A stretch of DNA of 64,000 nt, taken from positions 54,248 to 118,247 of the forward strand of contig CAJUOU010000003.1 of the NCBI GenBank assembly GCA_910588545.1, read 5' to 3'. Shown here piece by piece: positions 12,640 through 54,160 of the stretch. Origin of the DNA: an uncultured Christensenellaceae bacterium. GTDB lineage: Bacteria; Bacillota; Clostridia; Christensenellales; UBA3700. Positions within the stretch are counted from its first letter, which is position 1. Each line of letters starts with the position of its first letter. The notes beneath the pieces were generated by a model. It had not been told where the DNA came from and ran no database searches. It saw only the letters and a list, made by a program, of their open reading frames with translations. The position numbers and the translations under genes were made by a program.

Positions 12640-13938
12640 TCAACCTTTGTTTTTCTTAATAACTTTTGCTCTTACAAGAGTACTCTCCTTTCCGTTTGTA
12701 GACGGAATATACAATTTTTCATCCCTTAAACTATCTGGCAGATACTGTTGCTCAACCCAACCTCCAAAGGAATGCGGATATTTGTACCCCTCCACTTTTT
12801 CAACCTTAAAATTTGCATCGCGCAAATATAACGGTACAATGTCATCTTTTGATTTATTGACAAGTTCGACAGCTTTATCCAAAGCGTTTACCACGCTGTT
12901 TGACTTGCTTGCCTCACATACATAAATAATACTATTTACAAGTGGCAGTCTACCCTCGGGCATACCAATATTTTGAATTGCAAACATTGCCGAAGTTGCC
13001 ATAAGTTGTGCCATAGGGTCTGCCATACCAACATCCTCTGCACTATGAGCAATCAGTCTCCTTGCAATAAGCATTGGGTCACAACCGCTTTCAATCAAAC
13101 GTATTGCCCAATATACCGCGGCATCCGAATCACTACCACGAAGACTTTTGCAAAATGCACTAAGCATATCGTAATACATAGATTCGTCTATCGAAAGTGC
13201 CTTTTTTTGTATAGACTCCTCTGCGATATTCTTATTGATAATTATCTTACCTTGGCTGTCGGGTTGAGTAGTAACAACTGCAAGCTCCAACGCATTGTAA
13301 GCAGTACGCAAATCCCCATCACTTGCCCATACTATATGGTTAAGTGCCTCATCGGTTATTTTTATCTCATAGTTACCCAAACCATTTTCCTTATCCGACA
13401 AAGCTTTATTTAAAGCTTGCTTAATATCTTGGGAGTTAAGCTTTTTAAACTCGAATATCCTACACCTTGAGACAATAGCCCTTGTCATTGATATAAACGG
13501 ATTTTCGGTCGTTGAGCCTATAAATACGATATAACCTTGCTCTATCCCCGCAAGCACTGAGTCTGATTGTGCTTTATTCCATCTATGGCACTCGTCAAGC
13601 ATAAGATAAGTTTTTTTGCCGTACATTTTCAATCTTTCTTTGGCATCTTCTATAACTTTTTTAGCCTCCGCAACACCGCTGGAAACTGCATTCAACCTTA
13701 CAAAGTCTGCCTTTGTCGTGTTTGCGATTATATTTGCCAAAGTAGTTTTACCGCACCCCGGCGGTCCGTAAAATATAATGCTACCAAGGCTATCCGCCGC
13801 AATAGCTCTTCTTAACAACTTGCCTTTGCCCACAATATGAGTCTGCCCAACAAAATCATCAAGACTTGTCGGTCTCATCCTTTCCGCAAGCGGTGCAAGT
13901 TTACTTGTATTATCCATAAAATCAAACAAATTATCCAT
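12640..13938 (-). CDS. rarA: Replication-associated recombination protein A (AAA+ ATPase)
   Basis: LAERMRP...GPPGCGKTT...LDECHRWNK...ALRGSDSDAAVYW, typical of MgsA/RarA. Confidence 0.92.
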   Translation of the reverse strand: MDNLFDFMDNTSKLAPLAERMRPTSLDDFVGQTHIVGKGKLLRRAIAADSLGSIIFYGPPGCGKTTLANIIANTTKADFVRLNAVSSGVAEAKKVIEDAKERLKMYGKKTYLMLDECHRWNKAQSDSVLAGIEQGYIVFIGSTTENPFISMTRAIVSRCRIFEFKKLNSQDIKQALNKALSDKENGLGNYEIKITDEALNHIVWASDGDLRTAYNALELAVVTTQPDSQGKIIINKNIAEESIQKKALSIDESMYYDMLSAFCKSLRGSDSDAAVYWAIRLIESGCDPMLIARRLIAHSAEDVGMADPMAQLMATSAMFAIQNIGMPEGRLPLVNSIIYVCEASKSNSVVNALDKAVELVNKSKDDIVPLYLRDANFKVEKVEGYKYPHSFGGWVEQQYLPDSLRDEKLYIPSTNGKESTLVRAKVIKKNKG

Positions 13939-14096
13939 ATAAACATTTTACACCTAATTATTAGCCGTTGTCAATAGTTATCAAAACTATATTTTATCAC
14001 AAATTATTATATATTAAACGCTTAATAATTTATATAGCACAATTTAAATGTATTAATCCGAAAGTTAAATATGCCTATTTAAGCCTAATTAATTTA

Positions 14097-14269
14097 ACAT
14101 AGAATAAGTATATCTATGTACAAAATCGAAGATTTTTTGAGTTTAAATATATAATTTTTGTATGCTTAAAGTAAAGAGTTTACAAAACCTTTATCATAAC
14201 GTTGACATTATCTTACTTTTTAGTTTAAAATATACATATAATATGTACATAGATATACTTATTCCATGT
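14097..14269. promoter_or_regulatory. Candidate invertible promoter element (inverton), copy 1
   Basis: IR-L ACATAGAATAAGTATATCTATGTACA at 14097-14122. IR-R at 14244-14269 is its reverse complement with 1 mismatch. The core carries TTGACA (14202-14207)-18-TAAAAT (14226-14231) reading toward +. Confidence 0.5.
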
Positions 14270-14420
14270 ACCCAAACTTTACATTAAAGGCAAATATTTA
14301 ACCCCAATAGTCCCGATTTTTGATAGGATTATTGCAGTGAACAGCACTTTTTGCCAACTTGAAACTTTACACAAAAAGTTACACCCCAAAATTAAATGTT
14401 TCGGGGTGTATTTTATTTTT
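14238..14420 (+). ncRNA. Candidate ~180-nt sRNA (copy 1), from the core promoter to an intrinsic terminator
   Basis: Predicted TSS ~7 nt after the -10. Hairpins: GGCAAA/TTTGCC (14289-14294 with 14350-14355) enclosing a 9-bp stem (14305-14313 with 14326-14334), then AACTT/AAGTT (14356-14360 with 14376-14380), then terminator ACACCCC...GGGGTGT plus T-run (14381-14420). No plausible ORF. Confidence 0.4.
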
Positions 14421-14569
14421 AAGATTTATATCTTCTATCAAAATGCTAGAAAAAATGTGGCTCATTTAATGATTATCTGCTTAATCAACTTTTATCTTAA
14501 ATTGCATTAGGCATTAAATTATCTTTATACCAAAAACCATTTATTGCTATATAAGTTAACTAACAAAAA

Positions 14570-14602
14570 ATATCGGGGTGAGATTCACTCCGATATTTTT
14601 TG
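14570..14602. terminator. Bidirectional terminator after the minus-strand gene 14682-16016
   Basis: 11-bp stem ATATCGGGGTG / CACTCCGATAT (one G-U pair) flanked by A-run and T-run. Confidence 0.65.
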
Positions 14603-14681
14603 TTAATTAAATTAAAAACAACACTTGTCGCAATTATTCTAAAAATTATAATCTTAATCAATCGTATTGACTGCTAAATTA

Positions 14682-16228: not shown

Positions 16229-17143
16229 TTACCGTCTAAGTAGTTTTCCTACTCTGTTCATCATTGACGTTTTGTGGTCAAACATCGAGTGTGCATATCT
16301 ATTTAACGTAATTGTAGGGTTTGCATGTCCCAAAATTTCCGACAATGTTTTAACATCCATACCGCACTCTAACGCACGTGTTGCAAAAGTATGTCTTAAG
16401 GAGTGGAAGCCCTTGTGAGCAATGCCCAAATCCAACAACATTTTTTCAAAAAACCTTTGATATGTCCTTACACCCGAGCCATAGTCTGTCCTGCCTGGGA
16501 TAACATACTTGGACTCCGCATTTCTTCTCATAACTTTAAGATAAGGCACAAGCTGTTTAGGCATTGGTATTATCCTTTGAGAAGTATGTGTCTTAGGGGT
16601 GTCGATTACTTTTACATAGCCGCTCTCCCCCCAACTGTCGTGACAAGACTTGGAAACTTTGATAACGCACTTTCTCATATCCAAATCCGACCACTCAAGT
16701 GCCAACAACTCGCCTAAACGAATACCTGTATAAAGTGTCAAAAGCACACCGAAATACTTTGGTTTGTCAATAAAGACGATAAAGTTTTCAAGCTTTCTTT
16801 GCTCATAGATTGAAAAACACTCCACACGTTTTAGCTGTTGCTTTGGACGGGTAAGATAGTTTGAATATTCCTTGTCTATTATATCCAATTCCACAGCCTT
16901 GACAAGCGACAACTTTAATAGTGAAATCATTCCGTGAATCGTTGCACTTGCATATCCTTGATACATTTTTGTGTTGACAAATTGCTGCAACACAGCTGTC
17001 GACAACTCGTTCAAGTGATATTCACCTAGCTCAGGCAAAATATGAGCTTTTGCTAAATGACAATACTTTTCGTATGTCCTTTCCTTTACTTGTGACTTTA
17101 CATAGCAGTTAAGCCACTCACTGCACCATTGTTTGTAAACCAT
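16229..17143 (-). CDS. Tyrosine site-specific recombinase (phage-integrase/Xer family), orphan
   Basis: Full catalytic set visible: TGIRLGE (Arg), HSLRHTF (His-x-x-Arg), LGHANP (His), RYAHS (Tyr). An N-terminal SAM-like core-binding domain is present. Start at MVYKQW (ATG 17143), with GGAGG 8 nt upstream. No phage, IS or ICE genes are adjacent. Confidence 0.9.
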   Translation of the reverse strand: MVYKQWCSEWLNCYVKSQVKERTYEKYCHLAKAHILPELGEYHLNELSTAVLQQFVNTKMYQGYASATIHGMISLLKLSLVKAVELDIIDKEYSNYLTRPKQQLKRVECFSIYEQRKLENFIVFIDKPKYFGVLLTLYTGIRLGELLALEWSDLDMRKCVIKVSKSCHDSWGESGYVKVIDTPKTHTSQRIIPMPKQLVPYLKVMRRNAESKYVIPGRTDYGSGVRTYQRFFEKMLLDLGIAHKGFHSLRHTFATRALECGMDVKTLSEILGHANPTITLNRYAHSMFDHKTSMMNRVGKLLRR

Positions 17144-17355
17144 AATTGGTTCCTCCATAAAAAAATTTATTTCACTTTTAAAAAAGTGATACTTTAATTA
17201 TAATTCACAATTTGGCAGTTTTAAATATTTTTTCTTTACTTTTTCCGAAAATTTACATATATTTTTAATAATTATTTTACATTGATTTTATTTTAGAGAT
17301 TTTTTCTCACATAATTATTAAATAATTTTAACTTTTACTATACATTTGTTTTATT

Positions 17356-23597: not shown

Positions 23598-26396
23598 TTA
23601 AAAGAATAAGTTTATCATAAGTAATTTATCTATTACATTTCTTACAATTTCTGCATCTGCAGATGTTACATTGCCTTTGTTGACTACCATGCTTGCCAGC
23701 TTCTTTTCCGTACTCAAACTTTGGTATAATGTATCGTCACTTGCTAATTGTCTTAGGTATGATACATCGCTTGCACTTATCCTGCCGTCTCCGTTCACAT
23801 CCCCTAATACGGATAAAGTTATTCTTTCCACTTTACTACCCGATTGGTACTCCATATACCAACCTGTTCCAATAGCTAACTCTTTGCCGTTATTCAGTAA
23901 ATTTTCATTCACATTAGCATTGCCTTTGTCATATATTAACATGCCTTTACTGTTGTATATTTGCAACTTGGTTATATCAAACATTAAATTATTGACAAAT
24001 TCGTTTACGCTTGTATTAGGAGTAATATTGCCTAAAATCAATTTGCCGTTGTTATTTGTTGCAACTACTTCGCTATCATTTACCAATCGATAAATACCAT
24101 TTTCCCTATAACTTTTTCTAACCAATTTATCTCCGTCCTGTTCCAAATATAAAAAGTCATAAATGCCGTTTTTAATCATACTTTTATCTTCGATTGTGTA
24201 GGTTAAACTTATCTCCTCCGTTCCGCCTGTTGCCCACTCGTAATTACTCGTGTCTTTAATAGTTATTTTTGCGGTATGAACACCTGCCGTCTTAGCCTTA
24301 TTTCCCTCGATTTCCATTTTGTCATCATCAAAATTATCTGGCGTAAATACATGTTCCTCTCCGTCCAAAATGTAGTTTGCACTTCCGCTTGGAGCAGTCA
24401 ATTTTGCTTTTGTAATATTATAATATTTTGTATTTGAGGAAGCTTTTATCTTATAGTTTTTATTGCTTAAGGCAATGGCTACAGCTTTATACCCGCTACC
24501 TGCATTTATATTGCCGCCTTGTATGGTAACAGTACACTCGCTATCCTCCGCTATGCTTGCGGCTGGGCTTTGCACTTTTCCGTTATATACCAGATTGTCA
24601 TTATTCCATACTACATTTACTTCCTTAGGCAAAATGGTAAACATAAATGTAGGATTTTTATAATTACCTGCAGAATAAAAAGCATAACTTCCCGCATCCC
24701 TCAATGTACGACTTGTAAATGGAGCATCTTCTCCTTGCATATAAATTTCGCCTGTTGCGGAAATTACATAATCACGCCCCGTGTAGTTTACTGTCGCATT
24801 AGACCCGCCGTTTGTTTGACCACCTGTCCACTTCCAAGTCAAGTCGGTAGCAGTATTATCTTCATCTTTCAAAATAGCCTCTGTGCCCGAAGTGCCTATT
24901 CGTTTATTGCTGTTTGAAAAGAAATATCTGCTTGGAGTGATATCGTAATTGCCACCTGTATAATATCCGTAGGTAAATTCTCCTGTGTAATCGCTACTCA
25001 ACAAAACACCGACATGTGTTGTACTACTTGAAGTAGCCAATTTTCCTACTACCCTAATCCTCTCGCCTTTTGTCAAAAAAACATCTGCAGCACCGCTTGA
25101 GTTTGTATTATTATAAATTTGAGCACCTGCACCGATTGCAATAGTACCGTATGCACTGGTTACAGCGTGGTGTGTATTTATACCTGCTCCGTCCTTAGCA
25201 GAAATATTATTGTAAATTTTGCAGTTTCTTATAATAACATCACTTGACACAATAGTAATAGCTCCGTATGTATCAAAACTATTATTCCTAATTTCGCCGC
25301 CATTAAAATTAAATGTACCCACTTGCGTGTAAACTACTCCTGCACCGCTTTTATTAGCCAAATCATTCATAAAATAATTTCTTTCTATTATACCGTCGTC
25401 CATATTGAACTCTTTACAAACAACACGCATAGCGCATCCCCATCCATGGGCGGCATTTCTAGATATTAATCCACCGGTTATATTTACCGTAGATTTGTCA
25501 TTATAAGCACTTATGGCTCCACCCGTATCAATAGCAGAATTATTATGTATAATTCCTCCGTTAATTTGCAATTTTTTTGCTTGAAAATTTATTGCTCCGC
25601 CATCCCCTGAAATTATTCCATTATGTACGCCGATTGCTTGGTTATTAATTATCATTCCGCTATTAATTGTAATCGAGCTGTTTATTCCGGAATAAATAGC
25701 ACCTCCTCCTTGCGAGCCTTGTGCAATATTTCCGTAAATCATCCCGCCGTTCATCTCAAAGTAGCCCTCGTAGCTAACAACTAGTGCTCCACCGTCATTT
25801 GTAATATATCCGCCTGTTATACCACCCGCACCATAACTTTGCAAATTTGATTCCGGATTTTTATTATACGCATCCAAAACTTTTTGCTCATCGTATTTAC
25901 TATCCATAAGAATCAAATTGCCCCTTACATACATAACATTACCCCAATTAACCGCTACAGTCAATTTTCTGTCAATTTTAAAACCATTTAAATCCAATGT
26001 AATTGTCGCTCCTTCCGGAACAGCAATGCTACCATTGAAAAAGCTATTTTCATAACTGCCAAAATAGTTATTGCCGCTAGTAGGAGCAATCCAATCCCTT
26101 GACAATACAACTTTGATATGCAAGCCTTCCAATGACTCGACAATTACGTCATTCCACTCTTCGGCAATCTCTTCACAAGTAGTTCCTTTAAATATTACTT
26201 CCTTATCTATTTTACCGACAGTACTTTTTGTGATATTATTTTTGGAGTCTATGCTAACATTATCGATATTACTTGTAGGTGCACTTTCCAAAACATTTTT
26301 GTTCGCATTTGCAAAAACTACTATCCCGATTAATAATAGACAAGATATTACTGACACAAAAAATATTATTCCTGCCCTTTTAATAATCTTTGCCAT
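23598..26396 (-). CDS. Large cell-surface protein: signal anchor, Pmp-like GGAI beta-helix repeats, MBG-type Ig-like repeats, C-terminal dockerin
   Basis: Repeated GGAI/GGAL motifs (GGALVV, GGGAIYSG, DGGAINF, TGGAISAY). YNGKVQSP and YKAVAIALSNKNYKI blocks. C-terminal GDVNGDGRISASDVSYLRQ...VNKGNVTSADAEIVRN is a type-I dockerin pair. Start set at MAKIIKRAG (ATG 26396, GGAGG at 26404-26408) rather than the track start at 26447. Confidence 0.85.
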   Translation of the reverse strand: MAKIIKRAGIIFFVSVISCLLLIGIVVFANANKNVLESAPTSNIDNVSIDSKNNITKSTVGKIDKEVIFKGTTCEEIAEEWNDVIVESLEGLHIKVVLSRDWIAPTSGNNYFGSYENSFFNGSIAVPEGATITLDLNGFKIDRKLTVAVNWGNVMYVRGNLILMDSKYDEQKVLDAYNKNPESNLQSYGAGGITGGYITNDGGALVVSYEGYFEMNGGMIYGNIAQGSQGGGAIYSGINSSITINSGMIINNQAIGVHNGIISGDGGAINFQAKKLQINGGIIHNNSAIDTGGAISAYNDKSTVNITGGLISRNAAHGWGCAMRVVCKEFNMDDGIIERNYFMNDLANKSGAGVVYTQVGTFNFNGGEIRNNSFDTYGAITIVSSDVIIRNCKIYNNISAKDGAGINTHHAVTSAYGTIAIGAGAQIYNNTNSSGAADVFLTKGERIRVVGKLATSSSTTHVGVLLSSDYTGEFTYGYYTGGNYDITPSRYFFSNSNKRIGTSGTEAILKDEDNTATDLTWKWTGGQTNGGSNATVNYTGRDYVISATGEIYMQGEDAPFTSRTLRDAGSYAFYSAGNYKNPTFMFTILPKEVNVVWNNDNLVYNGKVQSPAASIAEDSECTVTIQGGNINAGSGYKAVAIALSNKNYKIKASSNTKYYNITKAKLTAPSGSANYILDGEEHVFTPDNFDDDKMEIEGNKAKTAGVHTAKITIKDTSNYEWATGGTEEISLTYTIEDKSMIKNGIYDFLYLEQDGDKLVRKSYRENGIYRLVNDSEVVATNNNGKLILGNITPNTSVNEFVNNLMFDITKLQIYNSKGMLIYDKGNANVNENLLNNGKELAIGTGWYMEYQSGSKVERITLSVLGDVNGDGRISASDVSYLRQLASDDTLYQSLSTEKKLASMVVNKGNVTSADAEIVRNVIDKLLMINLFF

Positions 26397-26420: not shown

Positions 26421-26593
26421 ACATAGAATAAGTATATCTATGTACAAAATCGAGGATTTTCGGGAAAGTTTTTTAAAGTTTTTGTAGCTTTTTTGTAAAG
26501 CAATTACAAAATGTTTAATTAAACGTTGACAAAAGTTTACTTTTGACCCTATAATATATATATAAAATGTACATAGATATACTTATTCCATGT
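26421..26593. promoter_or_regulatory. Candidate invertible promoter element (inverton), copy 2, abutting the surface-protein start
   Basis: IR-L at 26421-26446 and IR-R at 26568-26593 (1 mismatch). The core carries TTGACA (26526-26531)-18-TATAAT (26550-26555) reading + and away from the gene, whose ATG lies 24 nt outside IR-L. Confidence 0.55.
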
Positions 26594-26744: not shown

Positions 26745-26854
26745 AAGTCAATTTTAAATTTGTCAAAAATTAAGACAAAAAATGGCTTATTTATAAGTTG
26801 TTGATAGAAATTTAAGCAATTAAAATCGCCTTGCATAACTGCAGAGCGTTAGAT

Positions 26855-32681: not shown

Positions 32682-33032
32682 TGGTGGAACTGACGGGAGT
32701 TGAACCCGTGTCCAAACGGGGATTGACTATGCTTTCTTCGTGCGCAGTGCAAATTTTGAATTTTTCGCGATGTCGCCTTTTGCACAAGCTACATTTTGAT
32801 GAGGTGTTAATTTATCTTATTGCTCCACACCAAAAGCAATAAGACCTTCCTATCTAAATGATGCCACTTACCTATCCGATAGGTCTATAGGGGTGACAAG
32901 CTCGCTAATTAAGCAGCGAAAGCTAATTGATTATTATTTTTTGCGTTTATATTTAACGTTCGTTTTTACGTAGTCGAACCTACGGCACGCTTACACAATC
33001 TCACACCCACTTGTCGAATCCGTAACAGCCCC
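32682..33032 (-). ncRNA. ssrA: tmRNA (SsrA)
   Basis: 5' GGGGCTGTTACGGATTCGACAAG... and 3' ...GGACACGGGTTCAACTCCCGTCAGTTCCACCA (T-arm, acceptor, CCA). Tag reading frame GCA AAA AAT AAT AAT CAA TTA GCT TTC GCT GCT TAA (32909-32944) gives AKNNNQLAFAA. Confidence 0.93.
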
Positions 33033-43034: not shown

Positions 43035-43990
43035 GCGAATTACACAATAAAGAAATGCGTCAAGTTTACGTTGACAATTTGATTAAATACTCTAAACTCG
43101 ACAGAAGAATTGTCGTGCTTGAGGCAGACCTTATGAACTGCATAGGTACAGGCAAGTTTAAGGAAGCTTTTCCAAGACGTTTTATTAACTGCGGAATTGC
43201 GGAAAGTAATATGATAGGTGTGGCAGCAGGTCTTGCAAGTTGCGGCAAATTGCCTTTCTGCTCTTCTTTTACTCCGTTTGCTACAAGAAGATGCTATGAC
43301 CAAATCGCAGTTAGCGTTGGATATACAAAACAAAATGTAAAAATAGTAGGAACAGACCCCGGCATTATGGCTCAAATAAACGGCGGCACACACATGAGCT
43401 TTGAGGACGTTGCTCTTATGACTCAAGTACCCGATATGATTGTTGTTGAGCCTTGCGATTGCGTTTGCCTTGACAAACTATTCCCTCAAATTTTAAAATG
43501 TGATAAACCGATGTATATTAGATTGCAAAGGAAAAAGACTCCTCCAATCTATGACGAAAAAGCTAAAATCGACCTTTTTAAAGCTAATACTGTTGTGGAC
43601 GGAGATAGCCTTACCATCATAGCTTGTGGCATTATGGTACACCGTGCTATAGCGGCATCAATGACTTTGAAAAACCAAGGTATTAATGCAAGGGTTATTG
43701 CACTTCACACTTACAAGCCTTTGGATAGTGAAACAATACTTAATGCTTGTCGCGAAACAGGTGCGGTAGTAGTTTGCGAAAACCATCACTTGATAGGCGG
43801 CTTGGGCTCTGAAGTTGCTGCACTGCTTATGCAAAATGATGTGCTTATCCCTATGACTAGGGTTGGTATCGGTGACAGATACGGCGAAGTCGGCAAAGAA
43901 GCTTACCTTGCGGAAGTTATGCACCTAACCGAGCAAGACATTGTGGAAAAAGCGCAAGAAGCTTACAAAAGAAAACTTTCAAATATGTAA
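43031..43990 (+). CDS. tkt: Transketolase, C-terminal (pyrimidine-binding) subunit
   Basis: FINCGIAESNMIGVAAGLA motif. ATGA start/stop overlap with the N subunit and a GGAGG RBS. Confidence 0.92.
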   Translation: MSELHNKEMRQVYVDNLIKYSKLDRRIVVLEADLMNCIGTGKFKEAFPRRFINCGIAESNMIGVAAGLASCGKLPFCSSFTPFATRRCYDQIAVSVGYTKQNVKIVGTDPGIMAQINGGTHMSFEDVALMTQVPDMIVVEPCDCVCLDKLFPQILKCDKPMYIRLQRKKTPPIYDEKAKIDLFKANTVVDGDSLTIIACGIMVHRAIAASMTLKNQGINARVIALHTYKPLDSETILNACRETGAVVVCENHHLIGGLGSEVAALLMQNDVLIPMTRVGIGDRYGEVGKEAYLAEVMHLTEQDIVEKAQEAYKRKLSNM

Positions 43991-44062
43991 TTATAAAAAA
44001 ACAAAAACTACTGAATAAGCTCAGTAGTTTTTGTTTTTACCCCCGATTTTCAATTAATTTTT
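43934..44062 (+). repeat. Left copy of island-flanking direct repeat (authentic tkt 3' end + terminator + ACCCCCGATTTTCAATTAATTTTT)
   Basis: Aligns with 53937-54064. I counted 11 mismatches in the 57-nt coding part and about 6 differences in the 72-nt non-coding part. Confidence 0.85.
44002..44038 (+). terminator. tkt terminator
   Basis: 13-bp stem CAAAAACTACTGA/TCAGTAGTTTTTG followed by TTTTT. Confidence 0.85.
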
Positions 44063-44170
44063 GTCAAAAATTATCTTTTTATTTTAAAACAAATTCATTT
44101 AAACACTTAAATAATTAAAGAGTTTTAATGGCGTTTTATCAATTAAATAGCAAGTGAAAATGTATCATGT

Positions 44171-46755: not shown

Positions 46756-46952
46756 AAAACCTCCTTAATTAATATAAATTTTAATTTTGGAGTAAAACTA
46801 TATAACTAGCAGTCCTCATCATAAGTATTTTAACATAGTTTTACTCGTTTTTCAATATGAAAAATCAAATTAATTTTTCAATGTTCGCATTTTTTGTTGC
46901 TACACTCTTTAAAAACTTTCTCTTATCACCTCCTTAAGATATTACATTTTCC

Positions 46953-47032
46953 CCCTTCTACTTTATATACGAATAACTTGGCAATTTTTATTCAAAAAAA
47001 AGAAGAATTTTTGAAAATCTCAAAAATTCTTC
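46953..47032 (-). promoter_or_regulatory. Repeated module: 13-bp-stem terminator plus TGAATA-N17-CGTATA promoter (copy upstream of the ABC gene)
   Basis: Hairpin GAAGAATTTTTGA-aaatc-TCAAAAATTCTTC (47002-47032) plus a U-run. -35 TGAATA is the complement of 46989-46994 and -10 CGTATA the complement of 46966-46971. About 78 bp are near-identical to 51655-51736. Confidence 0.6.
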
Positions 47033-47071: not shown

Positions 47072-50000
47072 TCAATTTAAAAACATATCAAAAAATTCAT
47101 TTGAGTAAGCAGAAGGCAAATCTACTATAGAATCTTCAACTTGATGTTGTCCTGCAACTGGTTTACTTACTTGATCACCTACAGGTCCCACAGAAGTGGT
47201 GCCATCACGACCATATTCACCATTTTTACCATCGCTGCCATTGTTTCCTATAATTCCAGCATTTCCTCCTTTACCACCAGTACCTTTGTGACCAATATTG
47301 CCATTTTTACCATTGATACCACCATCAGTAGTTAAAGTTTCAACATTAGTTCCTTGAGCAGCACTTCCTGCAACTCCATTGGTTCCACCATTGCCACCTT
47401 TACCACCATCACCAGGGTCACCTGTTCCAGTAAACCAATCTCCACTAACATCATCAGCACCTTTGCCGCCATTACCACCATTGCCGCCATTGCCACCGTT
47501 TCCACCGTCGCCACCTTTAATATAATAATTAGAACCACGAGCAACATTAATTATATTATTTGATGCATAAATAGCATATCCGCCATTACCACCGTTTCCA
47601 CCAGCAGATCCATCTTTTCCTGGAGCGCCATCATCACCCTTTATAGGTTTAAAAATACTACCTCTTGGAGGTCTTTCACCATCTTTACCATTTTCACCAT
47701 TATAGCCGCTACTACCATTTCCGCCATTACCACCATAGATATAAACTTTAGAATCAGAATTAAAAGCCATTAATGTAACTTCCTTAGCTTTAATTCCATA
47801 ACCGCCATTAGCACCAGCTACACCATTACCACTTCCATCAGCTCCATTTCCGCCTTTAATGGTAACTGAACCAAAGTAAGTTAAATAAATTGCTGAACTT
47901 TCACAATCAATAGCATTAACTGCACCTCCAGTTGGTGCTTTTATATCAATATTTTTCAAGCCAAATAGAATTGCACCATTTCTGTTTAAAACATTAATTT
48001 TTGCAGTTATTGTCATATATCCATTGCCAATAAATGTTATCATTTTTACAGAAGAGTTTATATTTATAGTATACTTCATACTACTTGAAGCATTAGAAAA
48101 ATCTACTATAGCAACTCTATCAGTGATAGACAAATTCTCACTTGCTGTAATAACTCTTCCTTCCCATTCTACTACTAATTCAATATCTTTAAATATTTCT
48201 TTTGTATTTTCAAAACTATTACCATTATAACTCCATTTTACAAATAAATAACCAAATTTTTGTGGAGTAGCAAGTTCTGTGTTAAACACTGGATTGTCTA
48301 CTGTAAATTCATTTGGCAAATCAAACACAACATCGGCATACCTAAAATTATATGTAATATTATATTTAATTAAATCATATTGAGGGTATAATGTGTTGCT
48401 ATCAATTTGATCTTCCCATACCCATGTTTTTCTTGCATCAATGATAAGATTTCCACCTATTGGTTTATCAAACCAACCTTTAAATATCTTACCTTCTATT
48501 TCTGGAATTGCTATATCCAATGTTTGTCCATATTCAATAAATACTTCTTGTCCCCCATTATCACCGATAATAATTTGATATTTTGATGTTTCATATTTTG
48601 CTAATAGACTAATATCGTCATAAAAATCAATCATATCATTAACATTCAATCTTGTTCCATTATATTCCCAACCACAAAAATCTTTACCAGTTATTACTGG
48701 AGCAACAATATAGTTATCAAACTTAGACCCATAATACTCTGTCCTACTGCCAATAAAATTATTATTTATATCATAAAAATTGATTGTTAATTCTTTTGCT
48801 TTTAATGTATTAGTCAAATTAACAAAACAGATATTCTCTTGATATTCCTGCAATCTAGCTTCTTTTACATACAATATAACTTTATCATCAAAACAATCCC
48901 CATCTAAAACTGGTGGAATATCAGAAGTAAATATTATGCTTTCTAAATCTGTTGCACCTTTAAATGCTGAAACTCCTATAGAATCAATTTTATCAGACAA
49001 TATAATTTGAGTAGGGACATTGTTATCAAAACAATCTCTTCCTATTCTATGTATATTATCTGGAATTTTTACAATTCTTTCTGTTCCAAAATACTTTAAC
49101 AAAACTTTTCCTAAAATTACAAATTTACTTGCATTATTTGAATACCAAGGGGTATCTAACAAAGCGGTAATATCACAATCAATAATATTATTTGCATTAT
49201 TAATATATGCCAATGAACTATTTGTGAATGTTTCAGGTCCAATAAACTCTACTTGATTTAAATTAATAGTTCTAATATTTTTGTTGTTTTTAAATAATCT
49301 AGCATTTAAAATTGTTACTTTATCAGGAATTGTTATTTCAGAAACTACAGGATTTGCATATATTGCCACTTTTTTATCTGTATCTGTAACATTACATTTA
49401 ATTAAAATATTATCTTGCCAAACATAATTTGCATTGCTTTTAAAATTAGTAATCATAGTGCCTAAAAAAGCATCATCTTCAATACTATTAACACCATAAG
49501 GTATGATAAAATCAGTTATTGCTGTATTTGCAAAAGCACATTTAGTTATGATATTAAGAGAGGTATTAGCACTTAAATTTACATTGTTCAAATTACTACA
49601 TCCTGCAAATGCTCTTTCGCCCAAATTGTTCAAATATGGCAAATTGATAGAAGTTAATCCTAAACAATTTTCAAAAGCTGAATTGCCAATATTTTTCAAC
49701 TTATCCATAGCACTTCCTATATTAATACTTGAACAATTATAAAATGCTTCTGCGCCAACATTTTGTAAATTACCTAAGTCATCTAATGCTTCCAATTTAG
49801 TACAATTTTTAAAAGCATAATCTCCAATGTGTGTTACATTGTTCAAATTAGTTATAGATTTTAAATTAGTACAATTTTCAAAAGTTCCTATACCTATATT
49901 TTTAATGTTTTTGGATAAAGCCAAATTTTCAATACTATTATTAGCAAATACATAATCACCTAATTCAGTAACATTTTTTTCATAAATTGTATCAGGAATA

Positions 50001-50782
50001 GTTGTTATACCTTTTGCTTCGGGAATAAGTAATCTATTAATTTTTATTTCATTATTATTAATTTCCACTGCTTCGTATAGAAATTGCGGTCTTAATCCTA
50101 TAACATTTGATTCTATTAATATGTCATATTCTGCCTCTCCTTGTGGTGAATCATTAAAAATTTGCACACAATCACCTTGTGAAACATGTTGAATGATTTT
50201 TTTTGCAATTTCTTGATCACTTAAATCTAAATATTCAAGTCCATATTTTCGCCCTTTCTCATTATTAAATAAATCCATTTCTTTATCAACACCTTGCGAA
50301 TCATCTCCACTTTCATGTGCATCTGCATAAGTTTTAGCATCATCAACTCCCACATATTTAACCATTAATGCATTCCAATATGTATGTCTAAAAGCATCCC
50401 CATTATCCTTATAAAGACTTCCATCATAATAATATAGTGCTTCAGCTTTTGCTAACTTACTACACTCATATATTTGCAATGCAGCGCCTGGTTTTGTAAA
50501 TATAAATGTTTTTTCATCAGGCGAAAGATCTCCATAAAAATCATGAAATTTATCATATAAAGATTTTTCATCTTCAGTTTCATTATTATCTGTTTCATCA
50601 TTAATAGATTGCCTCTCTATTTGATTTACACTCAATTCACTAAACTTTGCTTTGTTGATATTAGCAAATTGCATAGTTTTTCCTATTAAAATTGTCCAAC
50701 TAAATATTGCAATAATCAAAATTGTTGGAATCAATAAAAACTTAAAAAGTTTTGAATTTTTAATTCTTTTATGTTTATCCAT
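47072..50782 (-). CDS. Giant surface protein: TM anchor, DUF6973-like domain, BspA-type LRRs, Listeria-Bacteroides repeats, Gly-rich/collagen-like C-terminus
   Basis: GDAFRHTYWNALM...DAHE...MDLFNNEKGRKYG block. More than 10 repeats of the IGxxAFxNCxxLxxI type. FCGWEYNG and FKGWFDKPIGG repeats. 14 uninterrupted G-X-Y triplets (GINGKNGNIGHKG...GRDGTT). Confidence 0.8.
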   Translation of the reverse strand: MDKHKRIKNSKLFKFLLIPTILIIAIFSWTILIGKTMQFANINKAKFSELSVNQIERQSINDETDNNETEDEKSLYDKFHDFYGDLSPDEKTFIFTKPGAALQIYECSKLAKAEALYYYDGSLYKDNGDAFRHTYWNALMVKYVGVDDAKTYADAHESGDDSQGVDKEMDLFNNEKGRKYGLEYLDLSDQEIAKKIIQHVSQGDCVQIFNDSPQGEAEYDILIESNVIGLRPQFLYEAVEINNNEIKINRLLIPEAKGITTIPDTIYEKNVTELGDYVFANNSIENLALSKNIKNIGIGTFENCTNLKSITNLNNVTHIGDYAFKNCTKLEALDDLGNLQNVGAEAFYNCSSINIGSAMDKLKNIGNSAFENCLGLTSINLPYLNNLGERAFAGCSNLNNVNLSANTSLNIITKCAFANTAITDFIIPYGVNSIEDDAFLGTMITNFKSNANYVWQDNILIKCNVTDTDKKVAIYANPVVSEITIPDKVTILNARLFKNNKNIRTINLNQVEFIGPETFTNSSLAYINNANNIIDCDITALLDTPWYSNNASKFVILGKVLLKYFGTERIVKIPDNIHRIGRDCFDNNVPTQIILSDKIDSIGVSAFKGATDLESIIFTSDIPPVLDGDCFDDKVILYVKEARLQEYQENICFVNLTNTLKAKELTINFYDINNNFIGSRTEYYGSKFDNYIVAPVITGKDFCGWEYNGTRLNVNDMIDFYDDISLLAKYETSKYQIIIGDNGGQEVFIEYGQTLDIAIPEIEGKIFKGWFDKPIGGNLIIDARKTWVWEDQIDSNTLYPQYDLIKYNITYNFRYADVVFDLPNEFTVDNPVFNTELATPQKFGYLFVKWSYNGNSFENTKEIFKDIELVVEWEGRVITASENLSITDRVAIVDFSNASSSMKYTININSSVKMITFIGNGYMTITAKINVLNRNGAILFGLKNIDIKAPTGGAVNAIDCESSAIYLTYFGSVTIKGGNGADGSGNGVAGANGGYGIKAKEVTLMAFNSDSKVYIYGGNGGNGSSGYNGENGKDGERPPRGSIFKPIKGDDGAPGKDGSAGGNGGNGGYAIYASNNIINVARGSNYYIKGGDGGNGGNGGNGGNGGKGADDVSGDWFTGTGDPGDGGKGGNGGTNGVAGSAAQGTNVETLTTDGGINGKNGNIGHKGTGGKGGNAGIIGNNGSDGKNGEYGRDGTTSVGPVGDQVSKPVAGQHQVEDSIVDLPSAYSNEFFDMFLN

Positions 50783-51654: not shown

Positions 51655-51736
51655 TCCCTTTCTACTTTATATACGAATAACTTGGCAATTTTTATTCAAA
51701 AAAAAGAAGAATTTTTGAAAATCTCAAAAATTCTTC
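51655..51736 (-). promoter_or_regulatory. Repeated module: terminator plus TGAATA-N17-CGTATA promoter (copy upstream of the lipoprotein and giant-protein genes)
   Basis: Hairpin at 51706-51736. -35 is the complement of 51693-51698 and -10 the complement of 51670-51675. Confidence 0.6.
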
Positions 51737-53301: not shown

Positions 53302-53319
53302 ATCCTAGCCTCCACTATA

Positions 53320-53348
53320 TATACGAACAACTTTGCAATTTTTATTCA
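53320..53348 (-). promoter_or_regulatory. Third copy of the TGAATA-N17-CGTATA promoter motif (upstream of the peptidase gene)
   Basis: -35 is the complement of 53343-53348 and overlaps the sigma gene stop codon. -10 is the complement of 53320-53325. GGAGG at 53309-53313 and ATG at 53301 leave an unusually short leader. Confidence 0.45.
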
Positions 53349-53870
53349 ATTTTGATAAAAATTTTTCATTTTTTTATAAATTCGTGTTCTTTGCGTATAT
53401 ATTGTAGCTATAGGGACATTATCCATTTCTGCTATTTCTTTAATTGTATATCCTTCCCAAAACATACGATATAACAATTCTTTTTCTTTATCATTTAGTA
53501 TTGACATTAATTCTTCAACAATTAGTGTTTTTAACGGCTGAAAACTTTTGTCTTCAATTTCATAATAACTATTACTTATATATTCTACTTTTATATCCTT
53601 TTTGTTTTCATCTATTGCTAAATTTTTTATGATTGTATACATCCAATTATATCCATTCTTTTTTATATCGAATCTACTTGCTTTCAACAAAATTTTTTTA
53701 TATAGTTCAAGCAAAACATCTTCAACACTATTCTTATTCTTCAAATAGTATTTTGCAATGCTTTCCATATTTTTATATGTATATTCAAACAATTTATCAA
53801 AAGCATGCTCATTTCCATTTGCAACCTGCTTGATATAATGATTTATTTTTTTATAATCTAATTGTTTCAA
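53346..53870 (-). CDS. Sigma-70 family (ECF-like, regions 2 and 4 only) RNA polymerase sigma factor
   Basis: Region 2-like AFDKLFEYTYKNMESIAKYYL...VEDVLLELYKKIL. Region 4 HTH LLYRMFWEGYTIKEIAEMDNVPIATIYTQRTRIYKKM. TTG start. Confidence 0.8.
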   Translation of the reverse strand: MKQLDYKKINHYIKQVANGNEHAFDKLFEYTYKNMESIAKYYLKNKNSVEDVLLELYKKILLKASRFDIKKNGYNWMYTIIKNLAIDENKKDIKVEYISNSYYEIEDKSFQPLKTLIVEELMSILNDKEKELLYRMFWEGYTIKEIAEMDNVPIATIYTQRTRIYKKMKNFYQN

Positions 53871-53910: not shown

Positions 53911-53939
53911 ATTATATCTTACTTGCCACAGTATGTCAA
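53911..53939 (-). promoter_or_regulatory. Consensus sigma-A promoter of the island sigma gene
   Basis: On the minus strand TTGACA (53934-53939)-17-TATAAT (53911-53916). It lies on the antisense strand of the tkt relic. Confidence 0.6.
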
Positions 53940-53993
53940 GATTTTGTTAAAAAAGCACAAGAAACTTACAACAGGAAACTTGAAAATATATAA
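53913..53993 (+). pseudogene. Relic 3' end of a second, diverged transketolase C-subunit gene
   Basis: 53937-53993 translates to QDFVKKAQETYNRKLENI-stop, against QDIVEKAQEAYKRKLSNM-stop for the real tkt end (43934-43990). Weaker similarity continues ~8 codons further upstream, and a stop at 53904-53906 closes the frame. Confidence 0.7.
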
Positions 53994-54064
53994 TTATAAA
54001 AAATAAAAACTACTGATTTAAACTCAGTAGTTTTTGTTTTACCCCCGATTTTCAATTAATTTTT
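53937..54064 (+). repeat. Right copy of island-flanking direct repeat (relic tkt end + second terminator copy + ACCCCCGATTTTCAATTAATTTTT)
   Basis: Same stem AAAAACTACTGA/TCAGTAGTTTTT as 44002-44038 with a different loop. Confidence 0.85.
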
Positions 54065-54160
54065 TTAAAACGCCTTTTAAATTTAAAATCATTTAAATAA
54101 CTTCTTTCATAGGTGTTGTTTTATTTTAGAGCATTGTAACTTTTAAGTTGCATTTAAAAA

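Follow-up and report, generated by a model that had tools for sequence, protein, structure and literature searches.

The 173-bp element at positions 14097-14269 (copy A) is probably an orphan, OFF-parked member of a family of chromosomal invertible promoter cassettes (invertons), and the family is likely flipped by the tyrosine recombinase encoded at 16229-17158. In the mouse-gut Clostridia lineage that carries these cassettes their copy number is about 30 per genome, and at sibling loci the inversion of the promoter is real. The window, by which we mean the whole 64-kb stretch of DNA analysed here, contains a second switch of the family (copy B) and is a piece of ordinary chromosome, in which rpoB, gap, pnp and a tmRNA gene are present. 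The coordinates of the relevant features are collected in Table 1.

Table 1. Features of copy A, its surroundings, the sibling switch and the candidate invertase (positions are those of the window).
Feature	Position	Strand	Remarks
rarA/mgsA (AAA+ ATPase)	12640..13938	-	Neighbour of copy A, not family cargo
rarA promoter, TTGACA-18-TAAAAT	13945..13974	-	Predicted; ends 6 nt before ATG (13938); kept in four lineages
IR-L, rarA-side 26-nt recombination site, ACATAGAATAAGTATATCTATGTACA	14097..14122	+	Dyad inside
Invertible core, 121 bp, A-type subfamily	14123..14243		Assigned by length and clustering
Imperfect palindrome, TTTTTGTA...TTTACAAAA	14155..14187		Upstream of -35; retained in the consensus of 7 or more of the 9 core clusters
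Sigma-70-type promoter, TTGACA-18-TAAAAT	14202..14231	+	Predicted; 11 of 12 consensus matches
IR-R, flank-side 26-nt site	14244..14269	-	G at position 5
Conserved flank	14270..14379		Blocks TTTACAT (14278-14284), CCCGATTTTTGATAGGATTATTGCA (14312-14336), AAACTTTACACAAAAA (14362-14377)
Putative flank promoter, TTGGCA-18-TGcAATAAT	14357-14328	-	TG-extended -10
Hairpin, A-tract before, T-tract after	14380..14420		12-pair stem; predicted terminator
Distal motif, AGAAA-N5-TGGCT	14448..14462		About 45 nt beyond the hairpin
Tyrosine recombinase, 309 aa, candidate invertase	16229..17158	-	Core-binding (SAM-like) and Phage_integrase domains only
Copy B cargo, 932-aa secreted protein, C-terminal dockerin	23598..26396	-	RBS directly outside IR-L; ATG 24 nt from IR-L
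Sibling switch copy B, B-type core	26421..26593		Flank to 26787; both orientations seen

Anatomy of copy A

Copy A consists of two 26-nt inverted repeats (IRs) that enclose a core. The sequence of IR-L contains a dyad of its own, in which ACATAGA and TCTATGT stand on either side of a 9-nt asymmetric spacer. IR-L and IR-R are complementary at 25 of their 26 bases, and the single mismatch (A versus G at position 5) is the same in copies A and B. When up to three mismatches were allowed, the 26-mer gave four matches in the 64-kb window and none in 100 shuffles.

A preliminary description of this DNA had reported identical IRs and cores of equal length in the two copies, and alignment bore this out: the IR sequences at 14097-14122 and 14244-14269 are the same as those at 26421-26446 and 26568-26593, and both cores measure 121 bp. 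The identity of the cores, which had been put at about 70% with no indels, is 66.9% in an ungapped alignment, against 42% when one core is compared with the reverse complement of the other; copies A and B therefore stand in the same orientation in the window. The -35 hexamer TTGACA, the 18-nt spacer and the A/T-rich -10 hexamer (TAAAAT in copy A, TATAAT in copy B) were matched in both copies, at 11-12 of 12 consensus positions, and constitute the best promoter matches of their regions. The two cores also keep TTTTTGTA, GTAAAG and TTACAAAA in register, again as described. In the window, the predicted copy A promoter is directed toward IR-R and the conserved flank, i.e. away from rarA. The homology between the copies ends exactly at the outer base of IR-L. 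The palindrome found upstream of the -35 hexamer may be bound by a protein of architectural or regulatory function. In a comparison with Rfam at the gathering threshold the tmRNA was the sole match in the window, and neither the element nor its vicinity matched any family.

Promoter inversion at copy B and other sibling loci

Promoter inversion was observed directly by comparing assembled sequences of the same locus. An exact-protein look-up with the 932-aa cargo protein of copy B yielded two ENA contigs, L127 and L128, both of which encode the exact protein. The locus in L127 has the orientation seen in the window. In L128 the flank, the IRs and the RBS are unchanged, while the 121-bp core is 100% reverse-complemented, with TTGACA-18-TATAAT facing the RBS and the cargo gene. 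Two further contrasts, each between a MAG and a metagenome contig, were found at loci with DUF6273-dockerin cargo. L066 and L108 have flanks that are 100% and 99% identical and a core that is 100% reverse-complemented; for the pair L050/L092 the core of one matches the reverse complement of the other at 96%.

These pairs also delimit the point of exchange. The G/A difference at IR position 5 remains with the flanks (L127/L128), whereas the A/T difference at IR position 26 moves with the core (L066/L108). The strand exchange is thus confined to the IR itself, to its positions 6-25, and this is the part in which the asymmetric spacer is found.

Among the assembled switches, 3 of 86 face their gene. 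This proportion agrees with a repertoire whose members are each switched ON in only a minority of the cells. The ON examples came from the general IR scan and from exact-protein look-ups; a metagenome scan for the predicted ON junction (IR-L joined to the reverse-complemented core end) returned no match, the pattern probably being too specific.

Family size and core subfamilies

When one genome of each species was scanned with a 23-nt IR pattern, 49 loci were detected, and a metagenome scan added 48 more. Nearly all of the 49 loci originate from two mouse-gut MAGs, CANSGN01 ('uncultured Clostridia bacterium') and CAJTYW01 ('uncultured Christensenella sp. MGBC121002'); MAGs of the lineage are labelled Christensenella sp., Clostridia or Eubacteriales. 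The MAGs and metagenome contigs contain 86 complete switches with this IR, of which 83 are exactly 173 bp long; the other three measure 174 bp (two switches) and 172 bp (one switch). The CANSGN MAG, which represents the species of the window (it holds near-identical copies of the window genes), harbours 28 complete switches, 18 with an A-type and 8 with a B-type core.

The search of other genomes for the IR, advocated in the preliminary description, was thus productive, and the cargo genes of the paired switches encode secreted proteins. A dispersed unpaired repeat is excluded, since all 86 occurrences are inward-facing pairs placed 121 (+/-1) bp apart and the copy B locus exists in both orientations; unpaired IRs were encountered only at the ends of contigs or of the sequence pieces scanned. 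The proposal that copy A is a second recombinase-driven switch is likewise supported, by the invariable inward-facing pairing of the IRs and by the inverted sibling loci, with copy A itself seen one way only.

The cores fall into discrete clusters. The A-type cluster comprises 35 instances (25 distinct sequences) and the B-type cluster 19 instances (14 distinct sequences); the mean pairwise identity is 94% within each of them, and between the two types it is 63-72%, i.e. about 67%. Copies A and B are therefore representatives of two subfamilies and not of one drifting sequence. Identical ends around a drifting interior had earlier been taken as a sign of selection or conversion acting on recombinase sites: the interpretation of the ends as recombinase sites stands, and the drift gives way to the two subfamilies.

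Further core clusters, down to 37-46% identity, were recognized in other species, and in these the length is unchanged. Several elements are kept in nearly all clusters, namely a T-run near IR-L, the series TTTTTGT...TAAA...TTAC.AA, TTGACA, TTAC.TTT, the -10 hexamer and the last bases before IR-R. The TTGACA hexamer occupies one fixed core position in 43 of the 43 switches checked. The distance between the centres of the two sites is 147 bp, or about 14 helical turns. By analogy with fimS, the invariant core length might reflect a constraint on synapsis, possibly with a bending protein at the inner palindrome.

Many of the metagenome and MAG contigs that carry the recombinase gene (L009-L018, L129 and L130) end at or within a switch or its flank, and further copy A assemblies, fetched via the neighbouring phosphoesterase gene, also ended at the switch. 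Short-read assemblies are broken at these loci by the repeats or by orientation heterogeneity.

The complete cassette

The preliminary description had treated the IRs as the boundaries of the unit, and this proved too narrow. It missed about 190 nt beyond IR-R, as well as the RBS and the start of a signal peptide that are usually present beyond IR-L. On the IR-R side, copies A and B are 100% identical over 73 nt and about 90% identical out to approximately position 14425, and the repeated unit consists of the IR-bounded switch together with these roughly 190 nt. Three blocks of the flank are common to several species and recur at the same offsets after position 26593; they are not accompanied by RNA covariation. 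The first block, TTTACAT, is located 8 nt outside the flank-side IR and resembles the inner arm of the IR, TGTACAT; on the basis of this resemblance it could be an extra recombinase half-site.

The flank leads to a hairpin whose stem displays compensatory changes at five pairs across lineages. These changes, together with the A- and T-tracts on its two sides, indicate that the hairpin is a bidirectional intrinsic terminator, which insulates the cassette. A second strong hairpin, with 30-nt arms that are 90% complementary, is found at 14552-14614, downstream of the phosphoesterase gene, and two terminators would thus be arranged in tandem before the copy A flank.

The distal motif of copy A belongs to the family pattern AGNNA-N5-TNNCT, which is often palindromic, e.g. 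AGCCATAATTTGGCT; its instance at copy B occupies positions 26773-26787. Among 72 distinct flanks, the motif is placed 176-180 nt from the IR in 40, and it occurs anywhere in the 110 nt scanned in 42, compared with 1.6% of shuffles. RNAalifold, applied to 23 diverse flanks, recovered the IR hairpin and the terminator and no other conserved RNA structure. Two small ORFs of the flank, one of 11 codons whose ATG belongs to IR-R and one of 36 codons that starts with TTG on the opposite strand, were considered as coding sequences and rejected, because neither is preceded by an RBS and their frames are broken by 1-nt indels between lineages.

Beyond IR-L, on the gene strand, nearly all copies of the family possess the RBS AAGGTAAAAACGGAGGTTTTATTATG and an ATG situated 22-25 nt from the IR; both are absent in copy A. 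The cargo proteins begin with MAKIIKRAGIVFFVLVIS..., a conserved signal/anchor segment, and vary in the remaining part, their length being 480-1200 aa. Those tested terminate in a type I dockerin and sometimes contain DUF6273 or Listeria-Bacteroides repeats (Flg_new).

Copy A as a probable orphan beside rarA

Copy A retains both IRs, an A-type core with its promoter and, beyond IR-R, the flank with terminator and distal motif; it is without the family RBS and without a cargo gene. A gene to be regulated is situated directly downstream of copy B and of nearly all other switches, and no such gene is found at copy A. Its neighbour on this side is rarA, as the preliminary description had correctly noted, although the interval between IR-L and the ATG measures 158 nt and not the 159 nt given there. 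The sequence of this interval is unrelated to that found beside other copies. The description had also assigned to rarA a promoter of its own, with a -10 hexamer ending 6 nt before the ATG. We found the same promoter, conserved in four lineages. Because of this short distance and of the lack of an RBS, a leaderless rarA mRNA is suggested. The earlier opinion that the output of this copy is unclear still holds, given that rarA has its own conserved promoter. The end of homology at the outer base of IR-L and the separate rarA promoter together point to copy A being an orphan switch parked OFF.

The copy A promoter faces the flank in 17 of 17 instances (13 assemblies of the species and the loci L048, L022, L084 and L091), a uniformity that is uninformative with respect to rare flipping, as consensus assemblies show the majority state only. 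A switch is located beside rarA in three core clusters, and its distance from the ATG is 114, 158-162 or 229 nt. In L048:3503, L022:5648, L084:2171 and L091:6204 the IR on the rarA side carries 2-3 mismatches in its outer arm, which is perfect in the window, and the rest of the switch is intact. Judging from these sequences, the outer-arm substitutions in other lineages may represent decay toward a locked state. On the other hand, a useless relic would hardly be expected to persist, as the orphan does, in at least three core clusters, unless it is maintained by gene conversion from other copies.

In some strains an extra unit of 3.3 kb is inserted between the phosphoesterase gene and copy A (L004:2359-5667, L005:2365-5667 and L048:201-3502). 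It is composed of a B-type switch, a cargo gene encoding 968-970 aa and a flank, and it is absent in the strain of the window and in L001-L003 and L006. Its presence in a part of the strains identifies the copy A site as a place of cassette gain or loss between direct repeats; a few SNPs tentatively point to a crossover within the flank.

The candidate invertase

The tyrosine recombinase gene, located 2 kb from copy A, is the only recombinase gene detected in the 64-kb window. Its product scores far below the Xer equivalog cut-offs, and its catalytic domain aligns with that of the Tn1549 integrase (E = 3e-19), without the arm-binding N-terminus. The gene order (PI-PLC-like gene, recombinase, phosphoesterase) is kept in relatives.

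Homologues of the recombinase link it to the switches. In the species with a 77% homologue, switches surround the recombinase gene. The sequence of their IRs is ACATAGAATACATATATCTATGTACA, in which the arms are preserved and the middle of the spacer has changed jointly in both IRs (ACA for AAG). The 59% and 55% homologues are each followed within 50 nt by a pair of 26-nt IRs, whose inner arm is TCTATGTA, and then by a gene for a secreted protein. At these 55-59% homologues the IR pairs (L123:10962-11121 and L125:10960-11116) enclose a core of about 105 bp, and the secreted product has Flg_new repeats or is trypsin-like. This widespread arrangement of one recombinase with one switch may be the ancestor of the expanded family. 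In the orthologue contexts L116 and L122 no switch was present within 7 kb, and the recombinase gene was not found inside the 8-kb loci of other species, a span that is too small for this purpose.

The sites are built of 7-bp arms and a 9-nt spacer, and the centre of the spacer co-varies in the two IRs between species, which fits the behaviour expected of the overlap region of a tyrosine recombinase. Most likely, the product of 16229-17158 flips the switches, as judged from association, which is not proof.

Proposed mechanism and alternative explanations

Based on these observations, we suggest the following mode of action. Read in the direction of the gene, a standard cassette consists of the distal motif, the bidirectional terminator, about 110 nt of flank, a 26-bp IR, the 121-bp core, a second 26-bp IR, the RBS and the gene, whose product is a secreted protein with the N-terminus MAKIIKRAGIVFF..., usually ended by a dockerin. 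Each IR would act as a complete recombinase core site, built of inverted ACATAGA arms around the asymmetric spacer. The tyrosine recombinase would exchange strands in the spacers of the two opposed sites and thereby flip the core. A promoter turned toward the gene would set the switch ON and yield a transcript whose 5' UTR measures about 58 nt; a promoter turned toward the flank would set it OFF, and the transcript would end at the terminator. For copy A, a terminated transcript of about 185 nt would be the sole routine product, and a flip would place a strong promoter 158 nt upstream of rarA. The promoter activity is predicted from consensus matches. If copy A flips, its junctions should read TAATTAATTTA + IR-L + TATTATATGTATAT and CTTCGATTT + IR-R + ACCCAAACTTTAC.

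Two alternatives concern the role of copy A and of the OFF state. The switch might still be functional and make expression of the operon that contains rarA, ABC transporter genes and ruvX phase-variable, the flipped promoter boosting expression in a subpopulation. The retention of a switch directly upstream of rarA in three core clusters, the perfect IRs of the window and the fact that no terminator is predicted between IR-L and rarA would agree with such a function. We nevertheless consider it unlikely, as all 17 instances face away from rarA, the promoter belonging to rarA itself is conserved, a conserved RBS or leader is missing, the spacing varies, the rarA-side arm appears to be decaying in other lineages, and all other cargoes are secreted proteins. 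It is also quite unlikely, in our estimation, that the OFF state is not idle, in the sense that the approximately 30 cassettes drive an abundant family of RNAs of about 185 nt, which feeds back on switching or cargo expression, or that the DNA blocks of the flank act themselves. In the OFF state, each of the cassettes directs a near-consensus promoter into a conserved flank of 150 nt that ends at a bidirectional terminator. The RNA, made up of the IR hairpin, the three cross-species blocks and the terminator, would report by its abundance the number of OFF switches, and the feedback would limit the display to a few of the 30 surface proteins. In the DNA variant, the half-site-like motif TTTACAT and the distal motif AGNNA-N5-TNNCT would be the acting elements. 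If the OFF state were not idle, the orphan beside rarA would be a dedicated cargo-free producer.

The remaining alternatives question the nature of the switch or of its recombinase. In a mechanism like that of cwpV, acting after initiation, a fixed promoter of the flank would read through the core, and the orientation would set termination or interference. A promoter-like site with a TG-extended -10 does exist in the flanks of copies A and B, and the TGCAATAAT block is conserved in most clusters. The -35 hexamer of this site, however, is not conserved, neither orientation of the core is predicted to contain a G+C-rich terminator, and the core has a conserved near-consensus promoter of its own; moreover, the TG and the -10 are lost in 3 of 4 cluster 7 flanks, and for this reason we keep the fixed flank promoter as a weak rival only and regard it as very unlikely. 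There is an equally slight chance that the enzyme flipping the 26-bp sites is a Hin/Mpi-type serine invertase whose gene is located in another part of the genome. The sites have the length of hix sites, and the inspection covered 64 kb of the genome. Against this, a Hin query had no match in the 64-kb window, the combination of 7-bp arms, 9-nt spacer and co-varying centre is of the tyrosine type, the sites of serine systems (Hin/Gin/Mpi) having a 2-bp crossover core, and homologues of the tyrosine recombinase stand repeatedly beside such IR pairs. Finally, the 173-bp unit is short and dispersed, has 26-nt terminal inverted repeats and occurs about 30 times per genome, all of which would suit a MITE-like mobile element whose copies arose by transposition and whose promoter-like sequence is incidental. 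This explanation is extremely improbable: target-site duplications were not found, the context is constant and asymmetric (flank on one side, RBS and signal peptide on the other), the position of TTGACA is fixed in all 43 switches checked, and inversion in place was observed between unchanged flanks.

Other features of the window

Outside the cassettes, the window contains an 81-nt repeat with a hairpin in three copies (46952-47032, 51656-51736 and 53306-53386), the first two of which are 99% identical. The repeat occurs near the gene of a 1236-aa BspA-type LRR protein (47072-50782), whose 3' part (47209-47833) has a 9-nt periodicity and encodes Gly-rich collagen-like repeats. Two intergenic stretches separated by 10 kb, 43934-44068 and 53937-54070, are 82-90% identical, which suggests duplicated boundaries of gene clusters. 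The tmRNA gene is located at 32682-33032 on the minus strand and specifies the tag peptide AKNNNQLAFAA.

Comparison with known systems and significance

Surface variation by promoter inversion is well known in gut bacteria, and most of the work on it concerns Bacteroides, enterobacteria and C. difficile. The fimS switch of Escherichia coli, which is inverted by two tyrosine recombinases, FimB and FimE, is a single locus of 314 bp with 9-bp IRs. The cassettes described here resemble fimS in having a promoter within a short IR-bounded segment, small tyrosine recombinases nearby, ON/OFF control of a surface structure and asymmetric outer sequences. They differ from it in their size (173 bp) and in their 26-bp IRs, which are complete palindromic core sites, as well as in the presence of about 30 loci per genome with one candidate recombinase and dockerin-bearing secreted cargo.

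In Clostridioides difficile, RecV acts on about 7-8 switches (cwpV, flgB, cmrRST and others) that differ in size and IR sequence, several of them operating after initiation. Compared by system features, the two cases share the class Clostridia and the action of one tyrosine recombinase in trans on several surface-protein switches; in contrast to the RecV switches, the present family is a uniform module with identical IRs and an internal promoter, and its copy number is several-fold higher. The Mpi system of Bacteroides fragilis depends on a serine recombinase, and its cargo consists of capsular polysaccharide operons. It is similar in that a master recombinase serves many promoter invertons with a common IR motif and creates combinatorial surface variation, and different in the recombinase type, in the cargo and in the phylum, which is not that of the present lineage.

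A further parallel is the Clostridia 'inverton group 139', linked to the adjacent tyrosine 'invertase group 35' (PMC11892184). An example of this group has 26-nt IRs and a core of about 205 bp, and shifts of its orientation were measured in culture and in mice (PMC11892184). Compared by description, the two groups have in common that they are Clostridia invertons with an adjacent tyrosine recombinase and, in the one example, 26-nt IRs; they differ in core length (about 205 bp versus 121 bp), and neither a 30-locus expansion nor dockerin cargo was reported for group 139 (PMC11892184). A search of that paper for the IR arm sequence yielded no IR sequences. A full-text literature search for invertible promoters or invertons together with dockerin or Christensenella-type names retrieved nothing.

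The switching logic of the proposed cassette family is of a known kind, represented by fimS, RecV and Mpi. What is notable is the copy number, the uniformity of the module, the built-in terminator and flank, and the cargo family. Mechanistic novelty is to be expected, if at all, from the conserved blocks of the flank and from the distal motif.

An uncultured lineage of mouse-gut Clostridia thus possesses a uniform and heavily amplified version of promoter inversion, with about 30 identical site pairs per genome. The nature of the cargo suggests that different proteins are loaded, in a phase-variable manner, onto one cohesin-type anchor common to them. The family might constitute a clean system for studies of how one recombinase keeps to partners 121 bp apart among 60 identical sites, and its orphan copy shows how cassettes are gained, lost and left behind.
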